This document shows, piece by piece, positions 1,876 through 50,529 of a stretch of DNA of 64,000 nucleotides; positions within the stretch are counted from its first letter, which is position 1, and each line of letters starts with the position of its first letter. The position numbers and the translations under genes are program-made. The notes below the pieces were generated by a model that did no database searches, was not told where the DNA came from, and saw nothing but the letters and a program-made list of their open reading frames with translations. The DNA is from Bryobacterales bacterium (lineage in GTDB: Bacteria; Acidobacteriota; Terriglobia; Bryobacterales; Bryobacteraceae), in the NCBI GenBank assembly GCA_963835855.1, contig CAWIHA010000011.1, positions 13,608 through 77,607 of the forward strand, in the 5' to 3' direction.

Positions 1876-2898
1876 TTACAGAAGCCGGAAGTTCACTTCC
1901 ACGTTCGCCAGTACGGCCACCGGGCGCCCGTCTTTCCTGCCCGGCTGGAAGCGCCACTTCTGCACAGCTTCGATGGCCTTCTCATCGAGGCCGAGGCCGA
2001 GCGGACGGACCACCTTGAAGTTCGTCGGCAGCCCACGCTCGTCCACGATGATCGAAATCACCACCGTGCCCTGGAACTTCGCCTTGCGCGCCTCTTCGGA
2101 GTACTCCGGCTCAACCTTATAGATCAGAGTTGGCGCAGATACGCCGCCGCCCACGCGGAATACGCCGCCTCCGAAGCCTCCGCCCTCGCCGGGCCCGAAG
2201 CCCGGACCTCTGCCGGGGCCGACGCCCCCGCCGCTGCCCGAACCGATGCCGCCGCCGGAACCGGGCCCGTTCGAGGGAGGCCCGATTTTGCCAAAAGGAT
2301 CGCCGTACTGCGACATGTTGACGTTCGGAATCGGCATGTTGGCTTGCGCAATGATCGTCGGGTCCATGATCAGCTTCGGATTCGGATTGTTGACCACCGC
2401 CATCGGCGGCGTGAACTGCCGCGGCGCAACCCGGGGCAGGCGCCCTTTGCTCGCCGGGAGAGGCGAGCGGTCGCCACCGCCGCCGCCACCGGCGGCCCTT
2501 GCCGCCTGCGGCGCCATATCCGGCTGGTAGGGCGCAATGTCAAGCGGAGCGACAATCGAGACTGCCTGTTTCACTGCCTGCTGGACCCCGTGGTTGCTCG
2601 CCACCGTGAACAGTAGCACCACTACGCAGACGTGAACGAGCGTCGAAGAGACACTTGCCTGCTTCCCGTAGCGGTACTCGCCCCAAATGCTCTTCACTGC
2701 GACGGGCTTCGAAGTCACCTCCAGGGGCGGAAGTTTAGGCGGGTGAATGAACTCTTTCACGTTGCGGAAGAAAGAGCGATACCACGGCTCTTCCACTTCG
2801 GCGACCAGTAGCCGGTTCAGGTGTTCGTCCGCGGCGTCGTGGCCGGGAGCCACACCGCCGCCCTTGGGAGGCTGTGGGATCGTTTCTTGACCTTGCAT
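1876..2898 (-). CDS. Energy transducer TonB family protein
   Basis: C-terminal TonB domain (PEYSEEARKAKFQGTVVISIIVDERG...AIEAVQKWRFQPGRKDGRPV), Gly/Pro-rich linker and one N-terminal TM helix. Start set at the internal ATG (MQGQET) rather than the ORF-track start 2970. Confidence 0.85.
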   Translation of the reverse strand: MQGQETIPQPPKGGGVAPGHDAADEHLNRLLVAEVEEPWYRSFFRNVKEFIHPPKLPPLEVTSKPVAVKSIWGEYRYGKQASVSSTLVHVCVVVLLFTVASNHGVQQAVKQAVSIVAPLDIAPYQPDMAPQAARAAGGGGGGDRSPLPASKGRLPRVAPRQFTPPMAVVNNPNPKLIMDPTIIAQANMPIPNVNMSQYGDPFGKIGPPSNGPGSGGGIGSGSGGGVGPGRGPGFGPGEGGGFGGGVFRVGGGVSAPTLIYKVEPEYSEEARKAKFQGTVVISIIVDERGLPTNFKVVRPLGLGLDEKAIEAVQKWRFQPGRKDGRPVAVLANVEVNFRLL

Positions 2899-13634: not shown

Positions 13635-13710
13635 GGGCGGCTAGCTCAGCTGGGAGAGCACGGCGTTCGCAACGCCGGGGTCGTGGGTTCGAATCCCATG
13701 CCGTCCACCA
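13635..13710 (+). tRNA. tRNA-Ala (anticodon CGC), CCA encoded
   Basis: Hand-folded cloverleaf: acceptor GGGCGGC/GCCGTCC with the G3:U70 Ala identity pair, anticodon loop TTCGCAA, T-arm GTGGG TTCGAAT CCCAT. Confidence 0.93.
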
Positions 13711-30301: not shown

Positions 30302-30786
30302 ATGCCCGACCACCGAACCGGTATTGGATGGGACGCTCACCGGCTCGCCCCTAACCGCCCTCTGATCCTCGGCGGAGTCAGGGTGCCCTCGGAACTAGGC
30401 TTGGAGGGCCACTCGGATGCCGACGTACTTTCGCACGCGATCACGGATGCGCTGCTCGGCGCCGCCGCGCTCGGCGATATCGGCATGCACTTCCCGGATT
30501 CCGACCCGCGCTGGACTGGCGCGGACAGTCTTGTCTTTCTACGGCACGCACGTGACTTGGCGAATGCTGAGGGCTTTCGGCTCGTCAGCGTGGACGCGAC
30601 GGTGATTCTGGAGCGCCCGAAGCTGAAGGACTACCGCATGGCGATTCGCCAGAAACTGGCCGGAGCGCTGGAACTGCTGCTCGATCAGGTATCCGTGAAA
30701 TTTAAGACCGCCGAGGGCCTGGGACCGGTGGAGAGGGCCGCTCAGCCGAAGCCCACGCCGTGGTCACAATCAAGCGGGCGCGCTAA
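30302..30786 (+). CDS. ispF: 2-C-methyl-D-erythritol 2,4-cyclodiphosphate synthase, with an apparent 1-nt frameshift near 30721-30724
   Basis: The N-terminal 140 aa are canonical (IGWDAHRL, GHSDADVLSHAITDALLGA). After AEGLG the expected C-terminus TGGEGRSAEAHAVVTIKRAR-stop is in the -1 frame and ends at 30786. The in-frame continuation to 30943 is Pro/Arg-rich and overlaps the next gene. Confidence 0.85.
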
Positions 30787-30845
30787 GCCGACCTATCTCC
30801 GAGGGGCTGACCGCGCGATCCCGGCGCCAGCGGCGATCCCCGCAC

Positions 30846-31322
30846 CTATGCCGGTTTCGCAATTTGGGCGTACTCCTGTTCCGATTTCGCCGGCAGCAGG
30901 ACCCAAAGCGTGTAGATGCCGAGCGCCGTGCCGAACGGTATAGAGATCAGGTTGAAACTCCCCCACACGATGGCCAACATGCGCGCCCACGGACGCCGCT
31001 CCAGCAACCCCCAGCCTGTCACGATGCCGATGACGGCCGCAGCCAGAAGCAGCACGCCCGCCACTTGTAGCAAAGCGTTGACAAACCCTGGGACACCGCG
31101 TAGCAACGGGCAGTACATGCCATGCCCGAACATGCACAGCAAGACCACCCCCGGGATCAGGCGGAGCACGGAAATCGCCAGCCACAAGATGCCCAGCAGC
31201 CGGACATGGCCGGCGACCCGGTGCTCGGCCGGCATCGTCGGTTCGGGCCCCACGGCCTTGCCGCATGCCGGACAAAAACCCTGAGACTCCTGCAACTGCG
31301 CGCCGCAACGAATGCAAAACAT
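30846..31322 (-). CDS. Zinc-ribbon domain membrane protein
   Basis: MFCIRCGAQL...CPACG zinc ribbon followed by four hydrophobic helices. GGAGG 8 nt upstream of ATG 31322. Confidence 0.65.
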   Translation of the reverse strand: MFCIRCGAQLQESQGFCPACGKAVGPEPTMPAEHRVAGHVRLLGILWLAISVLRLIPGVVLLCMFGHGMYCPLLRGVPGFVNALLQVAGVLLLAAAVIGIVTGWGLLERRPWARMLAIVWGSFNLISIPFGTALGIYTLWVLLPAKSEQEYAQIAKPA

Positions 31323-31486
31323 AATAAGACCTCCTGGATCGCCATAGAATACGACGGCACGGCTCCGTTTGTTCCACGGGAATCTGTGATTGCCGCCCAA
31401 GGGGATGCAGACGCCTGAAGCGCGAGCCGCGGCGCCGGCAGCCTTTCGCGCTGGCGCTGCTCGCTGAATTCGAATGGATCCTGAGC

Positions 31487-31696
31487 TTACTTGGCCCGGC
31501 GCTGTTTCTGCTGGCCGACGCGGATCTTGAAGTGCTGCTGTTTTGCTTCCTGGTGGGCCTTATGGTCGTGCCGCGCGACGAGATCCGCCAGGTAGGCGTC
31601 TATGCTGGTCTCTTTCGGCACCACGGCCATCACCGTAAAAGTCTCATTACAGACCGGGCAGTGAGGCCGGAATCGCCTGACGTTGGGAATTGCCAT
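31487..31696 (-). CDS. Small basic CxxC protein, hypothetical
   Basis: 69 aa from ATG 31696 (MAIPNVRRFRPHCPVCNETF...). Same strand and directly downstream of the NRAMP-like gene. Confidence 0.4.
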   Translation of the reverse strand: MAIPNVRRFRPHCPVCNETFTVMAVVPKETSIDAYLADLVARHDHKAHQEAKQQHFKIRVGQQKQRRAK

Positions 31697-31730
31697 ACTT
31701 TTGTATCGTAACACGCGTTCCCGGCTGGCA

Positions 31731-33002
31731 TCATTGCCCCAACTGCCGTATGGTGATGCCCACCAGCGCCAGCGTCAGGCCGATCATAATTGCCACAGAT
31801 GCCCACGCCACCACGTTGTAAGACTTCGAGTTCGTCCATTTGCCCATGAGATCCGTCTTGTTGATCAGCAAGACCATGTAGATCAGCACGACCGGCAGCA
31901 GCACGCCATTGAGCACCTGCGACCAGATGATCATCTTGATCAGCGGGAACTTCGGGATGAGCACGATGCCCGCCCCGATCACGATCAGCAGCGTGTACAG
32001 CCAGTAAAAGACCGGCGCCTCGCGGAGCCGCCGGTTCACGCCCGCTTCGAAGCCCAGGCCCTCGCAGACCGAATACGCGGTCGAGAGCGGCAGGATCGAG
32101 GCAGCGAACAGCGACGCGTTGAACAGCCCGGCGCTGAACAGCAGGAAGGCGTACTTGCCGAACGGCTTCAGCGCCTGTGCGGCCACCCCGGCGTCGTTGA
32201 TGTCCCGGGGGCCGTTCGCCCAGATCGCCGCCGCGCACGCCACAATGATGAAGAACGCGATCACCGAAGTTCCGATGCAGCCCACGACCACCTCGATGCG
32301 CGAGGCCTTGTATTCGTCCGCCGTGACCCCCTTCTCGACCACTGCCGCCTGCAAATAGAACTGCATCCAGGGCGCAACCGAAGTGCCCACCATGGCGATC
32401 AGCATCACGATGTAACCGGCATCCAACATCAACACCGGCTTGACGCTGTAAACGGCCGCCTCGACCCAATTCGGCTTCAGCAGCACCGCCGAAATGATGT
32501 AGCTGACGTACAGGAAACTCGCGAGCAGGAAGATTTTTTCAACGCTCCGGTAGGTGCCCTTCACCACCAGCAGCCAGACTGCGGCCGCGCAAACCGGAAC
32601 GGAAATGGCACGGCTGATCGAAAACAGCTCGAGCGAGGTGGCGATGCCGGCGAACTCCGCCATTACGTTGGTCAGGTTCGTCAGCACCAGCACGCTCATC
32701 AACAAGAACGTAGCGCGCAGTCCGAACTCCTCGCGGATCAGGTCCGAGAGGCCCTTGCCCGTCACCGCGCCCATGCGCGAGTTCATTTCCTCGGTGATGA
32801 TCAGCAGGACGGTGATCGGCAGCAGCGTCCACAGCGGCAGATAGCCGAACCTCGCGCCCGCCTGGGAGTAAGTGAGGATGCCGCCTGAGTCGTTGTCCAC
32901 CATCGCGGTGACGAAGCCCGGGCCAAGTACGGAGAGGAACAGGGCAATCTGCAACCGGCCCCGCTTGAGCGTGTGTCGGATTCCTTTCAGCATCAGCCTC
33001 AC
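31731..33002 (-). CDS. NRAMP-fold transporter with non-canonical metal-site motifs (DSGG / APW instead of DPGN / MPH)
   Basis: 11-12 TM segments. LGPGFVTAMVDNDSGGILTYSQAGARFGY aligns to MntH TM1, and MVGTSVAPWMQFYLQ aligns to TM6. GTG at 33002 or ATG at 32993 (preceded by GGTGAGG). Confidence 0.85.
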   Translation of the reverse strand: MRLMLKGIRHTLKRGRLQIALFLSVLGPGFVTAMVDNDSGGILTYSQAGARFGYLPLWTLLPITVLLIITEEMNSRMGAVTGKGLSDLIREEFGLRATFLLMSVLVLTNLTNVMAEFAGIATSLELFSISRAISVPVCAAAVWLLVVKGTYRSVEKIFLLASFLYVSYIISAVLLKPNWVEAAVYSVKPVLMLDAGYIVMLIAMVGTSVAPWMQFYLQAAVVEKGVTADEYKASRIEVVVGCIGTSVIAFFIIVACAAAIWANGPRDINDAGVAAQALKPFGKYAFLLFSAGLFNASLFAASILPLSTAYSVCEGLGFEAGVNRRLREAPVFYWLYTLLIVIGAGIVLIPKFPLIKMIIWSQVLNGVLLPVVLIYMVLLINKTDLMGKWTNSKSYNVVAWASVAIMIGLTLALVGITIRQLGQ

Positions 33003-33005
33003 CGC

Positions 33006-34244
33006 TCACTTCTGCCTCAACACGGAAATAATGTCGTCGGCTGTGATGACGCCCACCAACTTGCCGTCCTCATCGACCACGGGCAGGGTCAGAATGTTGT
33101 ACTTGTCGAACAGTTCTGTCATGCGATCCTGCTTCTCATCGACCGTAGCCCTGATGAGCGTGGCCGTGGCCAGCTCTTTCAACAGCTGCGTGCCCGTGGC
33201 GATGAAGACCTTCCCGATCGGCACCGCCGCAACCAGCTTGCCTGCGGCATCGATCAGAAACAGCGTGTTCAGTCCTTCCAGCAGGTCCTGGTTCGCCTTG
33301 AACGCGGTCATGGCATCGGCGGCAGTCGCGTTCTCGGGGAGCGCGACGTACTCGGTGTTCATCATGCCGCCGGCGGTGTCCTCTTCGTATTCGAGCAGCT
33401 CCCGGACTTCCGCCTTAGGCTCAACTTCCATCTTCTGAAGGATCTCCTCCGAAGCTTCCTCGTCCATCTCGGCGAGCGCGTCGGCGGCCTCGTCGGGAGC
33501 CATCTCCTCGATGATATCGGCTGCCTTTTCGGCCTCGAGCGATTCGAGAATCGCAGCCTGCATTTTCGGATCCACCTCGGAGAGTGCGTCGGCCGCCGCT
33601 TCGCTGTCGATGGTTTCGAAGATCGCCTCGCGCTCTTCGGGACTCAGATCTTCGACGATATCGGCCAGGTCGGCGGGGTGCAGATCTTCGAGCCTCTGGT
33701 GCGAGATGTTGAGGCGTAGCCGGCGCTGCGGATCCGCTTCGACGATGTTGCAGAATTCCCAGCGGATCGATTTCGGCGCGATGGGCTCTTGCAGCCGGCG
33801 GATCCAACGCCGCGGGAGCCAGCCCTGGAACACCCGGCGCAGCATGCTGCGCACGCCGACGTCCACCTCGAGCACGCGCAGAAGGTCGGAATCGTTGTGT
33901 TTGTGGATCTCGAAGGTGACGTCGTTCACCCGCACGACTTTCCGCCCGTTCACGTCGATAATTTGCTGGTCGAGCAGGTCCCGCGCGATGCGCAGCATGT
34001 ATTCGTCATCATGGTAAGGGGTGAGAATCTCATCGCGGAGGTGCACGCCATCGAGCGAGATGGAGCGGATCTGGTCCCAGCGGACGGTGAGCCAGGTCCA
34101 GCCCCCGCCCACCAGGTATCGGTCCACGCGGACCGGGTCGACGAGCGGAACTAGCGCGGCGTCGTCGATGCGGCCAATGCGGCGGCCCTTGAGATCGTAA
34201 ACCTTCAGACCAAGGATTTCCGTGAAGTAAAGAATGTCGGCCAT
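33006..34244 (-). CDS. Soluble PRC-barrel / MgtE_N / CBS-pair protein lacking the MgtE membrane domain
   Basis: PRC-like N-terminus (ILGLKVYDLKGRRIGRIDDAALV), acidic MgtE_N helices (HPADLADIVEDLSPEEREAIFETID...AADIIEEMAPDEAADALAEMD), two CBS motifs (LPVVDEDGKLVGVITADDII). No hydrophobic segments. Confidence 0.85.
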   Translation of the reverse strand: MADILYFTEILGLKVYDLKGRRIGRIDDAALVPLVDPVRVDRYLVGGGWTWLTVRWDQIRSISLDGVHLRDEILTPYHDDEYMLRIARDLLDQQIIDVNGRKVVRVNDVTFEIHKHNDSDLLRVLEVDVGVRSMLRRVFQGWLPRRWIRRLQEPIAPKSIRWEFCNIVEADPQRRLRLNISHQRLEDLHPADLADIVEDLSPEEREAIFETIDSEAAADALSEVDPKMQAAILESLEAEKAADIIEEMAPDEAADALAEMDEEASEEILQKMEVEPKAEVRELLEYEEDTAGGMMNTEYVALPENATAADAMTAFKANQDLLEGLNTLFLIDAAGKLVAAVPIGKVFIATGTQLLKELATATLIRATVDEKQDRMTELFDKYNILTLPVVDEDGKLVGVITADDIISVLRQK

Positions 34245-34353
34245 CGAAAGATGTCCTGCGATCGTGGCTTGCCTGGCAGCACCTTATACGATAACCGCAT
34301 GGCCGGCGAGCTACGATCCACGATCAACCCCACAACCCGCATGTCGCTGCTCA

Positions 34354-35838
34354 CTACCCAAGCTTCTGTTTGAGAAGCTCGTTCACGGCCCCCGGGTTCG
34401 CCTGGCCGCGGCTGGCCGCCATGACCTTACCGACGAAGAACCCGAACACCGCGGTTTTGCCGGCCTTGTACTGTTCGACCTGTTTCGGGTTCGCCGCGAG
34501 CACTTCGTCGACGATCTTCGCGAGCGCACCGGGATCGCTGATCTGCTTGAGGCCTTCGCGTTCCATGATCGCCCGCGCCGGCTCGCCGCTAGCCAACATC
34601 TTGGCAAAAACCTCCTTTGCCAGTTTGCCCGAGAGCTCGCCTCTCGCGATCAGCGCCAGAAGCTCACCCAACTGGCTGGCCGTGACCGGCGATTCGGTGA
34701 TGTCTTTGTCTTCGGCTTTGAGCGCCGCGGCCAGATCGCCCATCACCCAATTCGCGGCCGCACGCGAATCGCCCGAGGTCACGGCCGCTTGCTCAAAATA
34801 CTCCGCCATGCCGCGCGTTGCCGTGAGCACTTCGGCATCGTACTCGCGCAGGCCGTACCTCTCAACGAACCGCTTGCGTTTGGCGGGCGGCAGCTCGGGC
34901 AGCTCGGATCGTACGCGAGCCCGCCAAGCATCGCTGAGATCGAGCGGCAGCAGGTCCGGCTCCGGGAAATAGCGGTAGTCGTGCGCGTGCTCTTTCGAGC
35001 GCATGTCGGCCGTCGCGCCGGTCTCGGGGTCGTAGAGCCGTGTCTCCTGCTGGACCGTTCCGCCGCTCTCGATCACCGCCACCTGCCGCGAGATCTCATA
35101 GTCGAGCGCCATCCTCAGAAACCGGAACGAGTTCAGGTTCTTGACCTCGGCTTTGGTTCCGAACTTCTCTTGGCCGCGCGGCCTCACGGAGACGTTCGCG
35201 TCGCAGCGCAGGTGGCCCTTCTCCATGTCGCAGGTCGAGACTTCGACATACTGCAGAAGGAGCTTCAGCTCGGTGAGATACGCGTAGGCTTCAGCCGAGC
35301 TGCGCATATCCGGATCGCTGACGATCTCGATCAGCGGCGTGCCGGTACGGTTCAGATCGATGTAGCTGTAGCGATCCGAATCGCGAAAGCCCTCATGCAG
35401 GCTCTTGCCCGCGTCGTCTTCCAGGTGCACACGCGTCACGCCAAGCCGCTTCGTCACGCCGTCCAGCAGGATGTCGATGTAGCCGTGCTCACCCACCGGC
35501 TGGTCGTACTGGCTGATCTGGTAGCCCTTGGGGAGGTCCGGATAGAAGTAGTTCTTCCGGGCGAAGCGCGACCGCGGATTCACCGTGCAATTGAGCGCCA
35601 TGGCCGCTTTCATCGCCATCTCGACCGCGGTGCGGTTCAACACCGGCAGAGCGCCCGGCAGGCCCAGGCAGACCGGGCATACGTTTGTATTCGGCGGCGC
35701 GCCGAAACCGGCCGGACACGCGCAGTAGATTTTTGAGCGGGTCGCCAACTGCACGTGGACTTCCAGGCCGATCACGGGTTCGTACTTGGCCAGGATCTCC
35801 GGCGTGACGAGCGCGGCGGCGGAAGACATGAATATCAT
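34354..35838 (-). CDS. gatB: Asp/Glu-tRNA(Asn/Gln) amidotransferase subunit B
   Basis: YEPVIGLEVHVQL, CDANVSVR and C-terminal YqeY-like tail GQANPGAVNELLKQKL. Alternative ATG at 35829. Confidence 0.95.
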   Translation of the reverse strand: MIFMSSAAALVTPEILAKYEPVIGLEVHVQLATRSKIYCACPAGFGAPPNTNVCPVCLGLPGALPVLNRTAVEMAMKAAMALNCTVNPRSRFARKNYFYPDLPKGYQISQYDQPVGEHGYIDILLDGVTKRLGVTRVHLEDDAGKSLHEGFRDSDRYSYIDLNRTGTPLIEIVSDPDMRSSAEAYAYLTELKLLLQYVEVSTCDMEKGHLRCDANVSVRPRGQEKFGTKAEVKNLNSFRFLRMALDYEISRQVAVIESGGTVQQETRLYDPETGATADMRSKEHAHDYRYFPEPDLLPLDLSDAWRARVRSELPELPPAKRKRFVERYGLREYDAEVLTATRGMAEYFEQAAVTSGDSRAAANWVMGDLAAALKAEDKDITESPVTASQLGELLALIARGELSGKLAKEVFAKMLASGEPARAIMEREGLKQISDPGALAKIVDEVLAANPKQVEQYKAGKTAVFGFFVGKVMAASRGQANPGAVNELLKQKLG

Positions 35839-50452: not shown

Positions 50453-50529
50453 TGGTGGGCGGTGCAAGGCTCGAACTTGCGACCTCCTGCTTGTAAGGCA
50501 GGCGCTCTGACCAGCTGAGCTAACCGCCC
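50453..50529 (-). tRNA. tRNA-Val (anticodon TAC), CCA encoded
   Basis: Hand-folded: acceptor GGGCGGT/ACCGCCC, D-arm GCTC AGCTGGTCA GAGC, anticodon loop CTTACAA, T-arm GCAAG TTCGAGC CTTGC. Confidence 0.92.

Follow-up and report, generated by a model that had tools for sequence, protein, structure and literature searches.

Most genes for NRAMP-related Mg2+ transporters (nrmT genes, encoding NRMTs) adjoin a gene for a homologue of the cytoplasmic domain of the channel MgtE (Shin et al. 2014, PLoS Genet, PMC4072509). One such pair from Acidobacterium capsulatum, the riboswitch-free Acp2976 (MgtE-like) and Acp2977 (NrmT), has been expressed in B. subtilis, where Acp2977 fully rescued a Mn2+-uptake mutant, its rescue of a Mg2+-uptake mutant being confined to low-millimolar Mg2+; the authors speculated that the MgtE-like fragment provides "cytoplasmic feedback regulation" or serves as a metal chaperone (PMC4072509). 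Here we describe a pair of this kind in a 64,000-nucleotide (nt) stretch of DNA from a Bryobacterales bacterium (assembly GCA_963835855.1, contig CAWIHA010000011.1; the whole stretch is called the window), in which a gene for a soluble MgtE-like partner of 412 amino acids (aa), referred to below as the sensor, is followed by a gene for an NRMT-type transporter.

The structurally characterized member of the carrier family, EleNRMT, transports Mg2+ and Mn2+ without H+ coupling (PMC8806188). The NRMT transport site consists of a DxxG motif on helix 1 and a TxxA/T motif on helix 6 (Ramanadane et al. 2022, PMC8806188); in EleNRMT the histidine pair of helix 6b is replaced by Trp and Asn and the proton path of helices 3 and 9 is lost, while Glu133 and Gln379 are retained (PMC8806188). 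The structural paper is silent on a partner gene and mentions MgtE only as an unrelated channel (PMC8806188), and we found no later paper on the role of the MgtE-like partner in the searchable literature.

Our analysis identifies the locus as a typical two-gene nrmT unit of a Bryobacteraceae-like acidobacterium, of a kind known since 2014, and we hold the identity of both proteins and of the unit (NRMT carrier plus MgtE-like partner) to be virtually certain. The initial annotation of this DNA, made from its letters alone, knew of no characterised example of the pairing; the A. capsulatum pair is one, and the idea of a feedback sensor was published with it (Shin et al. 2014, PMC4072509). That pair resembles ours in coming from the same phylum, in having the MgtE homologue immediately upstream of the NRMT and in lacking an M-box Mg2+ riboswitch; the Acidobacteriaceae NRMTs of our survey are ∼57–62% identical to the window transporter. 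The Clostridium acetobutylicum NrmT (Ca_c0685) likewise shares one operon with an MgtE-like partner, but that operon carries an M-box and its partner is split in two genes (PMC4072509), whereas the window has no riboswitch and a single partner gene.

Results

The Transporter Has the Transport Site of an NRMT

The transporter belongs to the Pfam family Nramp (PF01566, E 1.4e-87), and its top sequence match in the PDB is EleNRMT (7qia_A, 355.6 bits, E 3.7e-105), aligned over residues 17 to 415. Classical NRAMPs score 26–85 bits overall, with DraNramp at 85 bits (5e-23), ScaDMT at ∼51 (1e-12) and EcoDMT at ∼28; the plant aluminium transporter NRAT scores 39 (4e-9), and the NCBIfam model for MntH (NF001923) gives 109.9 against a cut-off of 430. 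The transporter thus stands apart from the ordinary Mn2+ MntH proteins, as the initial annotation had expected. With the classical proteins (MntH, DraNramp, ScaDMT, EcoDMT) it has in common the LeuT-type Nramp fold, the Pfam family and the Asp of transmembrane helix 1 (TM1), while their soft-metal Asn, Met and His and their proton path are absent.

The HMMER alignment to DraNramp agrees with the two substitutions first read by eye: DPGN becomes DSGG in TM1 (D38 to G41), and GATVMPH becomes GTSVAPW in TM6 (T207 to W212). EleNRMT reads NDAGG and GTTIAPW at these places, so that its D55-A-G-G58 and T224-T-I-A227 align with D38-S-G-G41 and T207-S-V-A210 of the window transporter. The alignment with EleNRMT (PDB 7QIA, 7QIC, 7QJI and 7QJJ) runs end to end, and besides DxxG and TxxA-P-W the two share the helix-3 Glu (E116 in the window) and the helix-10 Gln (Q362). 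At the proton-path positions of DraNramp the window transporter has V106 for E124, V113 for D131, Y336 for R352 and T337 for R353. The two helix-6b His positions are occupied by W212 and L217; the second of these is Asn in EleNRMT. The same or closely related motifs are found in 40 full-length transporter homologues at 27–59% identity, within a family that comprises 789 representative clusters at E<=1e-30.

These data bear on the proposal that the gene encodes a previously unknown NRAMP-fold carrier, with a site rewired beyond that of the NRMTs for another hard cation and an MgtE-sensor pairing without precedent. The DPGN to DSGG and MPH to APW changes on which the proposal was founded are real, and Leu in place of Asn at the second helix-6b His is a difference from EleNRMT. 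However, DxxG and TxxA with His replaced by Trp are the published NRMT consensus and occur in EleNRMT itself (PMC8806188), which the window transporter matches at E 3.7e-105; most full-length homologues carry the same motifs; and the pairing has been in print since 2014, with an acidobacterial case tested (PMC4072509), and recurs next to Eggerthellaceae NRMTs. The missing TM1 Asn and TM6b His, which had been taken to mean that this is "not a standard NRMT either", are the NRMT signature (PMC8806188), and on sequence comparison we regard a new type of carrier as scarcely credible. By analogy with EleNRMT, to which it is close and whose site residues it shares, the window carrier is expected to be a low-affinity importer of Mg2+ and Mn2+ that works uncoupled from protons.

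The Upstream Gene Encodes a Soluble MgtE-Like Protein with an N-Terminal Extension

The open reading frame (ORF) and Pfam agree on the sensor as a soluble protein with PRC (E 6.9e-9), MgtE_N (residues 188–289, E 2e-27) and CBS (E 5e-13) domains, as first annotated. The PRC score of 36 bits (cut-off 21.2) is the sum of two partial matches, one over residues 4–28 (22.3 bits) and one over residues ∼87–113 (13.5 bits, weak alone). Many close homologues carry the JGI name "YlmC with PRC-barrel domain / CBS domain-containing protein", and the motif RDLLDQQIIDVNGRKVVRVND of the PRC region is nearly invariant among homologues and is present in Eggerthellaceae too. The basic and aromatic linker that follows also contains many invariant or nearly invariant columns (38 homologues), and the Eggerthellaceae sensor shares its I-x-W-x-[FY] core. 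That orthologue matches PRC over two stretches as well (E 1.3e-12).

The closest solved structure is the cytosolic domain of Thermus thermophilus MgtE (TtMgtE; 2yvy, E 7.9e-32, residues 183–410). An AlphaFold2 model places strands at residues 4–69 and 94–128, helices at 182–271 and the CBS pair at 290–410, and Foldseek relates it to MgtE cytosolic domains (2yvy, E 2e-19); its mean predicted local distance difference test is 71.5 and its predicted template modelling score 0.34, and the arrangement of domains in it is unreliable. The MgtE_N stretch is highly acidic, with 38 Asp/Glu versus 7 Lys/Arg in 108 residues.

The absence of the MgtE channel domain from this protein, noted at the outset, is borne out. 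No hydrophobic or transmembrane segment was found in the sensor (the highest Kyte-Doolittle mean over 19 residues, 1.58, lies inside CBS1), and the chain ends 5 residues past CBS2, which leaves no pore domain and no plug helix. Against the MgtE family model TIGR00400 it scores 150.7 (cut-off 232.75) and covers only profile positions 24–253 of 450. With TtMgtE (2YVX, 2YVY, 5X9G) the sensor has in common a homologous N domain and CBS pair, with the acidic residues that are ligands of Mg4, Mg6 and Mg7 in the channel. It differs in that the plug helix and the five-helix pore domain with its selectivity Asp are missing, so that it is not a channel, in that the residues of Mg2, Mg3, Mg5 and the ATP site are replaced, and in its extra 180-residue N-terminal PRC and linker region.

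Sensor and NRMT Genes Are Inherited Together across Phyla

We scanned one genome per species with an 11-sequence alignment (A2), which gave 589 confirmed relatives, and examined the best 80, nearly all from Acidobacteriota. The 73 evaluable NRMT loci were searched for a sensor within 4 kb, with spacing counted from the aligned transporter start. A full-length sensor lies upstream in 44 of the 73; partial or cut matches were found in 7 and none in 22. Wherever the transporter is at least 65% identical to that of the window, a full-length sensor precedes it on the same strand (all 19 evaluable loci; in 18 it lies within 60 nt). At 57–64% identity, a full-length sensor is upstream in 25 loci (5 adjacent, 14 at 61–500 nt, 6 further away), the 7 partial or cut matches also fall here, and the 22 loci that have no sensor within 4 kb belong to this group. 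The nearest comparison comes from another Bryobacteraceae genome (L001), in which a sensor homologue 78% identical to ours is followed 6 nt on by the Nramp gene amid wholly different flanking genes.

The pair extends beyond the phylum. In Eggerthellaceae, a 450-aa PRC + MgtE_N + CBS gene ends 3–4 nt before NRMT genes whose products share 91–92% identity with the solved EleNRMT, and this sensor is collinear with that of the window over 410 aa, its PRC region included (31% identity, E 1e-63). A profile search with a 42-sequence alignment (A1) returned Acidobacteriaceae only and added no taxonomic breadth. Conservation of the gene pair in relatives, on which the initial annotation had staked its interpretation, was therefore found both in close loci and across phyla. 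These comparisons show that sensor and NRMT are inherited together and that the PRC-MgtE_N-CBS protein plus NRMT is the ordinary, phylum-spanning form of the unit.

Spacing varies with lineage. The Bryobacterales pair nearly abuts, whereas in many Acidobacteriaceae the two genes stand 100–1200 nt apart or the sensor is absent, and the gaps of ∼1.1 kb hold an inserted glycosyltransferase-like gene. Such loci, together with the 22 of 73 that lack a sensor, would suit an arrangement in which the two proteins share an operon and have no direct functional contact, the CBS protein acting for example on another target. This is very improbable in our view: the pair is kept across phyla and at 3–12 nt spacing while its flanks change completely, and the sensor is collinear over its full length between phyla.

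MgtE Regulatory Sites in the Sensor Are Retained Selectively

We mapped the Mg2+ sites of TtMgtE, as defined by Maruyama et al. 2018 (PMC5882242) and Wang et al. 2023 (PMC10200709), onto the sensors through HMMER and MAFFT alignments. Residues were counted over 49 NRMT-linked sensors plus TtMgtE (n=50), sequences that are not phylogenetically independent. The window sensor keeps D219 for E59 (Mg7), D251 for D91 and D404 for D247 (both Mg4), and D255 for D95 (Mg6). It has lost the Mg2 ligand D214 (K371) and the Mg5 ligands D226 (N383) and D250 (S407), and because the plug helix is absent, the Mg2 and Mg3 sites cannot form.

Among the 50 sequences, the D95 position is invariant (50/50) and the E59 position is acidic in 46. 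The Mg4 ligand pair co-varies: the two positions are Asp together (D/D, 38/38), and of the 12 sequences without the first Asp, 9, from at least two clades, have another residue at the second position as well. This co-variation and the conservation at D95 and E59 argue that an MgtE-type N-CBS interface is preserved in NRMT-linked sensors, as far as alignments can indicate. Both Mg4 ligands are lost (A/G with N/Q/H) in the sensors of one Acidobacteriaceae clade in which a Glyco_trans_1_2-like gene stands between sensor and NRMT (L032 2874–3956, L033 2784–3989 and L052 2117–3169).

Other sites have diverged. The Mg5 position Asp226 is Asn in 45 of 46 acidobacterial sensors. At the positions of the TtMgtE ATP-site residues Y170, R187, D188, N203 and F227 (PMC5529423) the window sensor has T327, G344, K345, T360 and I384; across the sensors F227 is replaced by Leu, Ile or Val (49/49 NRMT-linked) and D188 by Lys, Arg, Thr or Ser, never by an acidic residue. 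In contrast to the fully soluble window sensor, with its N383 and S407, the 450-aa Eggerthellaceae sensors (L085 3645–4997, L087 3644–4996) are acidic at both Mg5 positions (Asp/Glu at D226, Asp at D250) and continue beyond CBS2 into an acidic stretch and a strongly hydrophobic helix of ∼22 residues (Kyte-Doolittle mean over 19 residues of 2.6 at ∼424–445), which is probably a membrane tail anchor. Acidobacterial sensors stop 5–6 residues past CBS2.

The same residues weigh on another role for the sensor, as a cation buffer or chaperone for incoming ions, or as a protein that helps the carrier to assemble or keeps it stable, with no gating function. A chaperone was the alternative of Shin et al. 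(PMC4072509); the acidity of MgtE_N would fit it, translational coupling would roughly match the amounts of both proteins, and co-expression in B. subtilis had no measurable regulatory phenotype (PMC4072509). We consider this role improbable. Co-variation of the Mg4 pair speaks for a conformational switch that has been preserved and not for simple buffering, and to our knowledge MgtE_N plus CBS occurs only as a regulatory module. In addition, EleNRMT is stable and active without a partner (PMC8806188).

No Mg2+ Riboswitch Was Detected and the Chief Ion May Be Either Mg2+ or Mn2+

The sole Rfam matches in the 64-kb window at the gathering threshold are two tRNA genes, at 13635–13707 (+) and 50456–50529 (-), and no riboswitch appeared at E<=1 in a search of positions 31300–34500 either. 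An M-box is likewise missing from 18 related loci (16 acidobacterial plus the Eggerthellaceae loci L085 and L087). In the 109-nt spacer past gatB a scan found no consensus sigma-70 promoter, nor did the coding strand show a terminator-like site.

Nine relatives (L001–L004, L009, L010, L013, L021 and L024) share a leader ∼75–115 nt upstream of the sensor start, with a -10-like CATAGTG followed by an invariant ATGTAG(A/G)GCG and then GCGCTC. The motif, possibly an operator site, does not occur in the window. A structured leader RNA was considered and dismissed: six relatives gave no RNAalifold consensus structure, and single folds were about as stable as those of shuffled sequences (z -1.6 to +0.7). 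In one Acidobacteriaceae locus (L027), an Acido-Lenti-1 RNA (RF01687) at 2398–2447 (+), ∼170 nt upstream of the sensor ORF, scores 38.8 bits against a gathering threshold of 37.

The lack of an M-box in the window and the 18 related loci would suit a carrier that, in Acidobacteriota, is mainly a Mn2+ importer with a partner sensing Mn2+ or some other signal, a reading that changes the ligand and leaves the architecture as it is. The M-box-free A. capsulatum NRMT, with its full rescue of the Mn2+ mutant and partial rescue of the Mg2+ mutant, points the same way (PMC4072509), and so does the loss of Mg5 ligands (D226 to Asn in 45/46) and plug sites from acidobacterial sensors, which Eggerthellaceae partly retain. 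We find it rather unlikely, since the transport site is that of EleNRMT down to the Thr needed for Mg2+ (T224; T207 in the window), EleNRMT moves both ions (PMC8806188), the Eggerthellaceae relatives also lack an M-box, and heterologous complementation is an indirect gauge of selectivity. On sequence, the chief ion in Acidobacteriota may be either of the two.

The Two Genes Form a Tightly Spaced Pair in a Housekeeping Neighborhood

Coordinates of the unit and its features are listed in Table 1. The junction reads AAG TGA GCG GTG AGG CTG ATG, so that, as already seen on first reading, the sensor stop lies 3 nt from a GTG and 12 nt from an ATG; the GGTGAGG just 5' of this ATG resembles a Shine-Dalgarno sequence. 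The public gene calls for the contig use the ATG starts for both the transporter (420 aa) and the small gene downstream (69 aa). In our reading of the locus, sensor and transporter genes are co-transcribed, and translation of the second is probably coupled to that of the first. Within the window both are in one frame, with the TGA and one codon between them. Programmed readthrough fusing sensor and carrier was rejected, and we attribute the shared frame to chance: the genes are in frame in 8 of 20 Bryobacterales loci, and the stops are a mixture of TGA, TAG and TAA.

Table 1. Features of the nrmT unit and its flanks, in window coordinates.
Feature	Position	Strand	Description	Basis
MgtE-like partner (sensor) gene	33006..34244	-	412 aa, PRC-PRC-MgtE_N-CBS; range includes the TGA stop 33006-33008	ORF
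N-terminal beta-rich region	33840..34244	-	residues 1-135; two PRC-barrel-like modules, ~1-75 and 76-135	
Basic/aromatic linker	33699..33839	-	residues 136-182 (GWLPRRWIRRL...IRWEFCNIV); no counterpart in MgtE	
MgtE_N acidic helical domain	33378..33698	-	residues 183-289	Pfam, TtMgtE alignment, site mapping
CBS pair	33009..33377	-	residues 290-412; D404 kept; Mg5, Mg2 and ATP residues replaced; no plug helix	
Gene junction	32994..33008	-	TGA, GCG, GTG (33002), GGTGAGG, ATG (32993)	read from sequence
NRMT-type Nramp-fold transporter gene	31731..32993 or 33002	-	420 aa from ATG (32993); 423 aa from GTG (33002)	ORF, Pfam, PDB sequence matches
TM1 metal-site motif	32880..32891	-	D38-S-G-G41 (DxxG)	HMMER alignment; NRMT consensus
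TM6 metal-site motif	32367..32384	-	T207-S-V-A210-P-W212 (TxxA, His to Trp)	HMMER alignment; NRMT consensus
CPxC small protein gene	31487..31696 or 31714	-	69 aa from ATG (31696); 75 aa from GTG (31714); 34 nt past transporter stop	ORF
Spacer, gatB stop to sensor start	34245..34353	-	109 nt; presumed promoter and leader	

The protein encoded by the small gene downstream is 69 aa long, contains one CPxC motif and a stretch rich in His (HDHKAH), and has no Pfam or NCBIfam match. The gene is real and conserved, with substitutions biased toward the third codon position and homologues 75–82% identical in three other Bryobacteraceae-type genomes (loci L001–L006). We nevertheless rejected it as a third component, because its conservation is confined to the closest genomes (the remaining 78 loci lack it) and because other genes intervene there: the homologues lie 1.3–1.9 kb downstream of the NRMT, beyond Yip1-domain and nucleoside hydrolase genes. 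It is a syntenic neighbor.

The surroundings are housekeeping genes, with gatB upstream on the same strand and ispD, ispF, PIN-domain, serA-like and aminotransferase genes nearby; the GC content is uniform along the window and there is no sign of a mobile element. The ispF (YgbB) ORF at 30302–30943 (+) has a Pro/Ala-rich tail of ∼65 residues beyond the domain, and overlaps by 98 nt with a convergent gene at 30846–31400 (-) for a zinc-ribbon and DUF2127-like membrane protein.

Discussion

The locus is, on balance, probably best explained as an nrmT unit made up of an NRMT importer and an MgtE-type partner that restrains it. Of the split, two-protein system first envisaged, with an MgtE-type sensor and an NRAMP carrier, the tight co-oriented pair and the NRMT branch stand, and regulation is plausible. 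The regulatory component by itself, in which the partner would sense divalent cations and restrain the carrier, is to our minds evenly balanced between right and wrong on sequence comparison. Inferred within it are the binding of a ligand, contact between the two proteins and the direction in which regulation works.

In this scheme, acidic-cluster ligands of the soluble partner would sense cytosolic divalent cations, and a compact form of the partner would limit transport through the uncoupled carrier. The partner presumably docks on the cytoplasmic face of the carrier through its PRC and linker region, which MgtE lacks. A more specific version would make the PRC-MgtE_N-CBS protein a detachable gating subunit, in which cation-driven closure of the N-CBS interface (Mg4 plus Mg6/Mg7) is relayed by way of the PRC and linker region to the LeuT-fold carrier at its cytoplasmic side; we put this forward tentatively, as a possibility on which we would not insist.

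Several observations count against restraint of the carrier by its partner. Co-expression of Acp2976 gave no added rescue of the Mg2+ defect in B. subtilis, and the A. capsulatum transporter acted mainly as a Mn2+ importer (PMC4072509); the published test scored rescue, which in our view cannot reveal over-import. For MgtE, it was hypersensitivity assays with Co2+, Ni2+ and Mn2+ that brought to light the loss of regulation in a delta-N form (PMC5529423). MgtE needs its Mg5 ligands for closure, and a D226N/D250A double mutant fails to close (PMC5882242), while the window sensor has Asn and Ser at these positions and possesses neither the plug helix with its Mg2 and Mg3 sites nor the ATP site. 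The sensor is dispensable for the carrier, because ∼30% of the evaluable NRMT loci (22/73) have none within 4 kb. The 150 best representative homologues, which reach 546 aa at most, include no sensor-NRMT fusion protein, and the confidence of the AlphaFold2 model is low over the PRC and linker part through which contact is proposed.

Since the pairing and both protein families were already described, the residual value of the locus lies in the role of the partner, which can now be framed as questions of mutagenesis and binding. What alignment across genomes appears to add is the two PRC modules with their conserved linker, the retention and co-variation of Mg4, the loss of Mg5, the plug and the ATP site, and the putative anchor in Eggerthellaceae. 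An uncoupled Mg2+/Mn2+ carrier must be restrained somehow, and a partner found across phyla is the obvious candidate, the one published test having been negative. If the partner does act as a gating subunit, it would exist in lineage variants, a soluble one without Mg5 in Acidobacteriota and a tail-anchored one that retains Mg5 in Eggerthellaceae, and no earlier case would precede the unit in which a sensor module from an ion channel regulates a secondary-transporter fold in trans.

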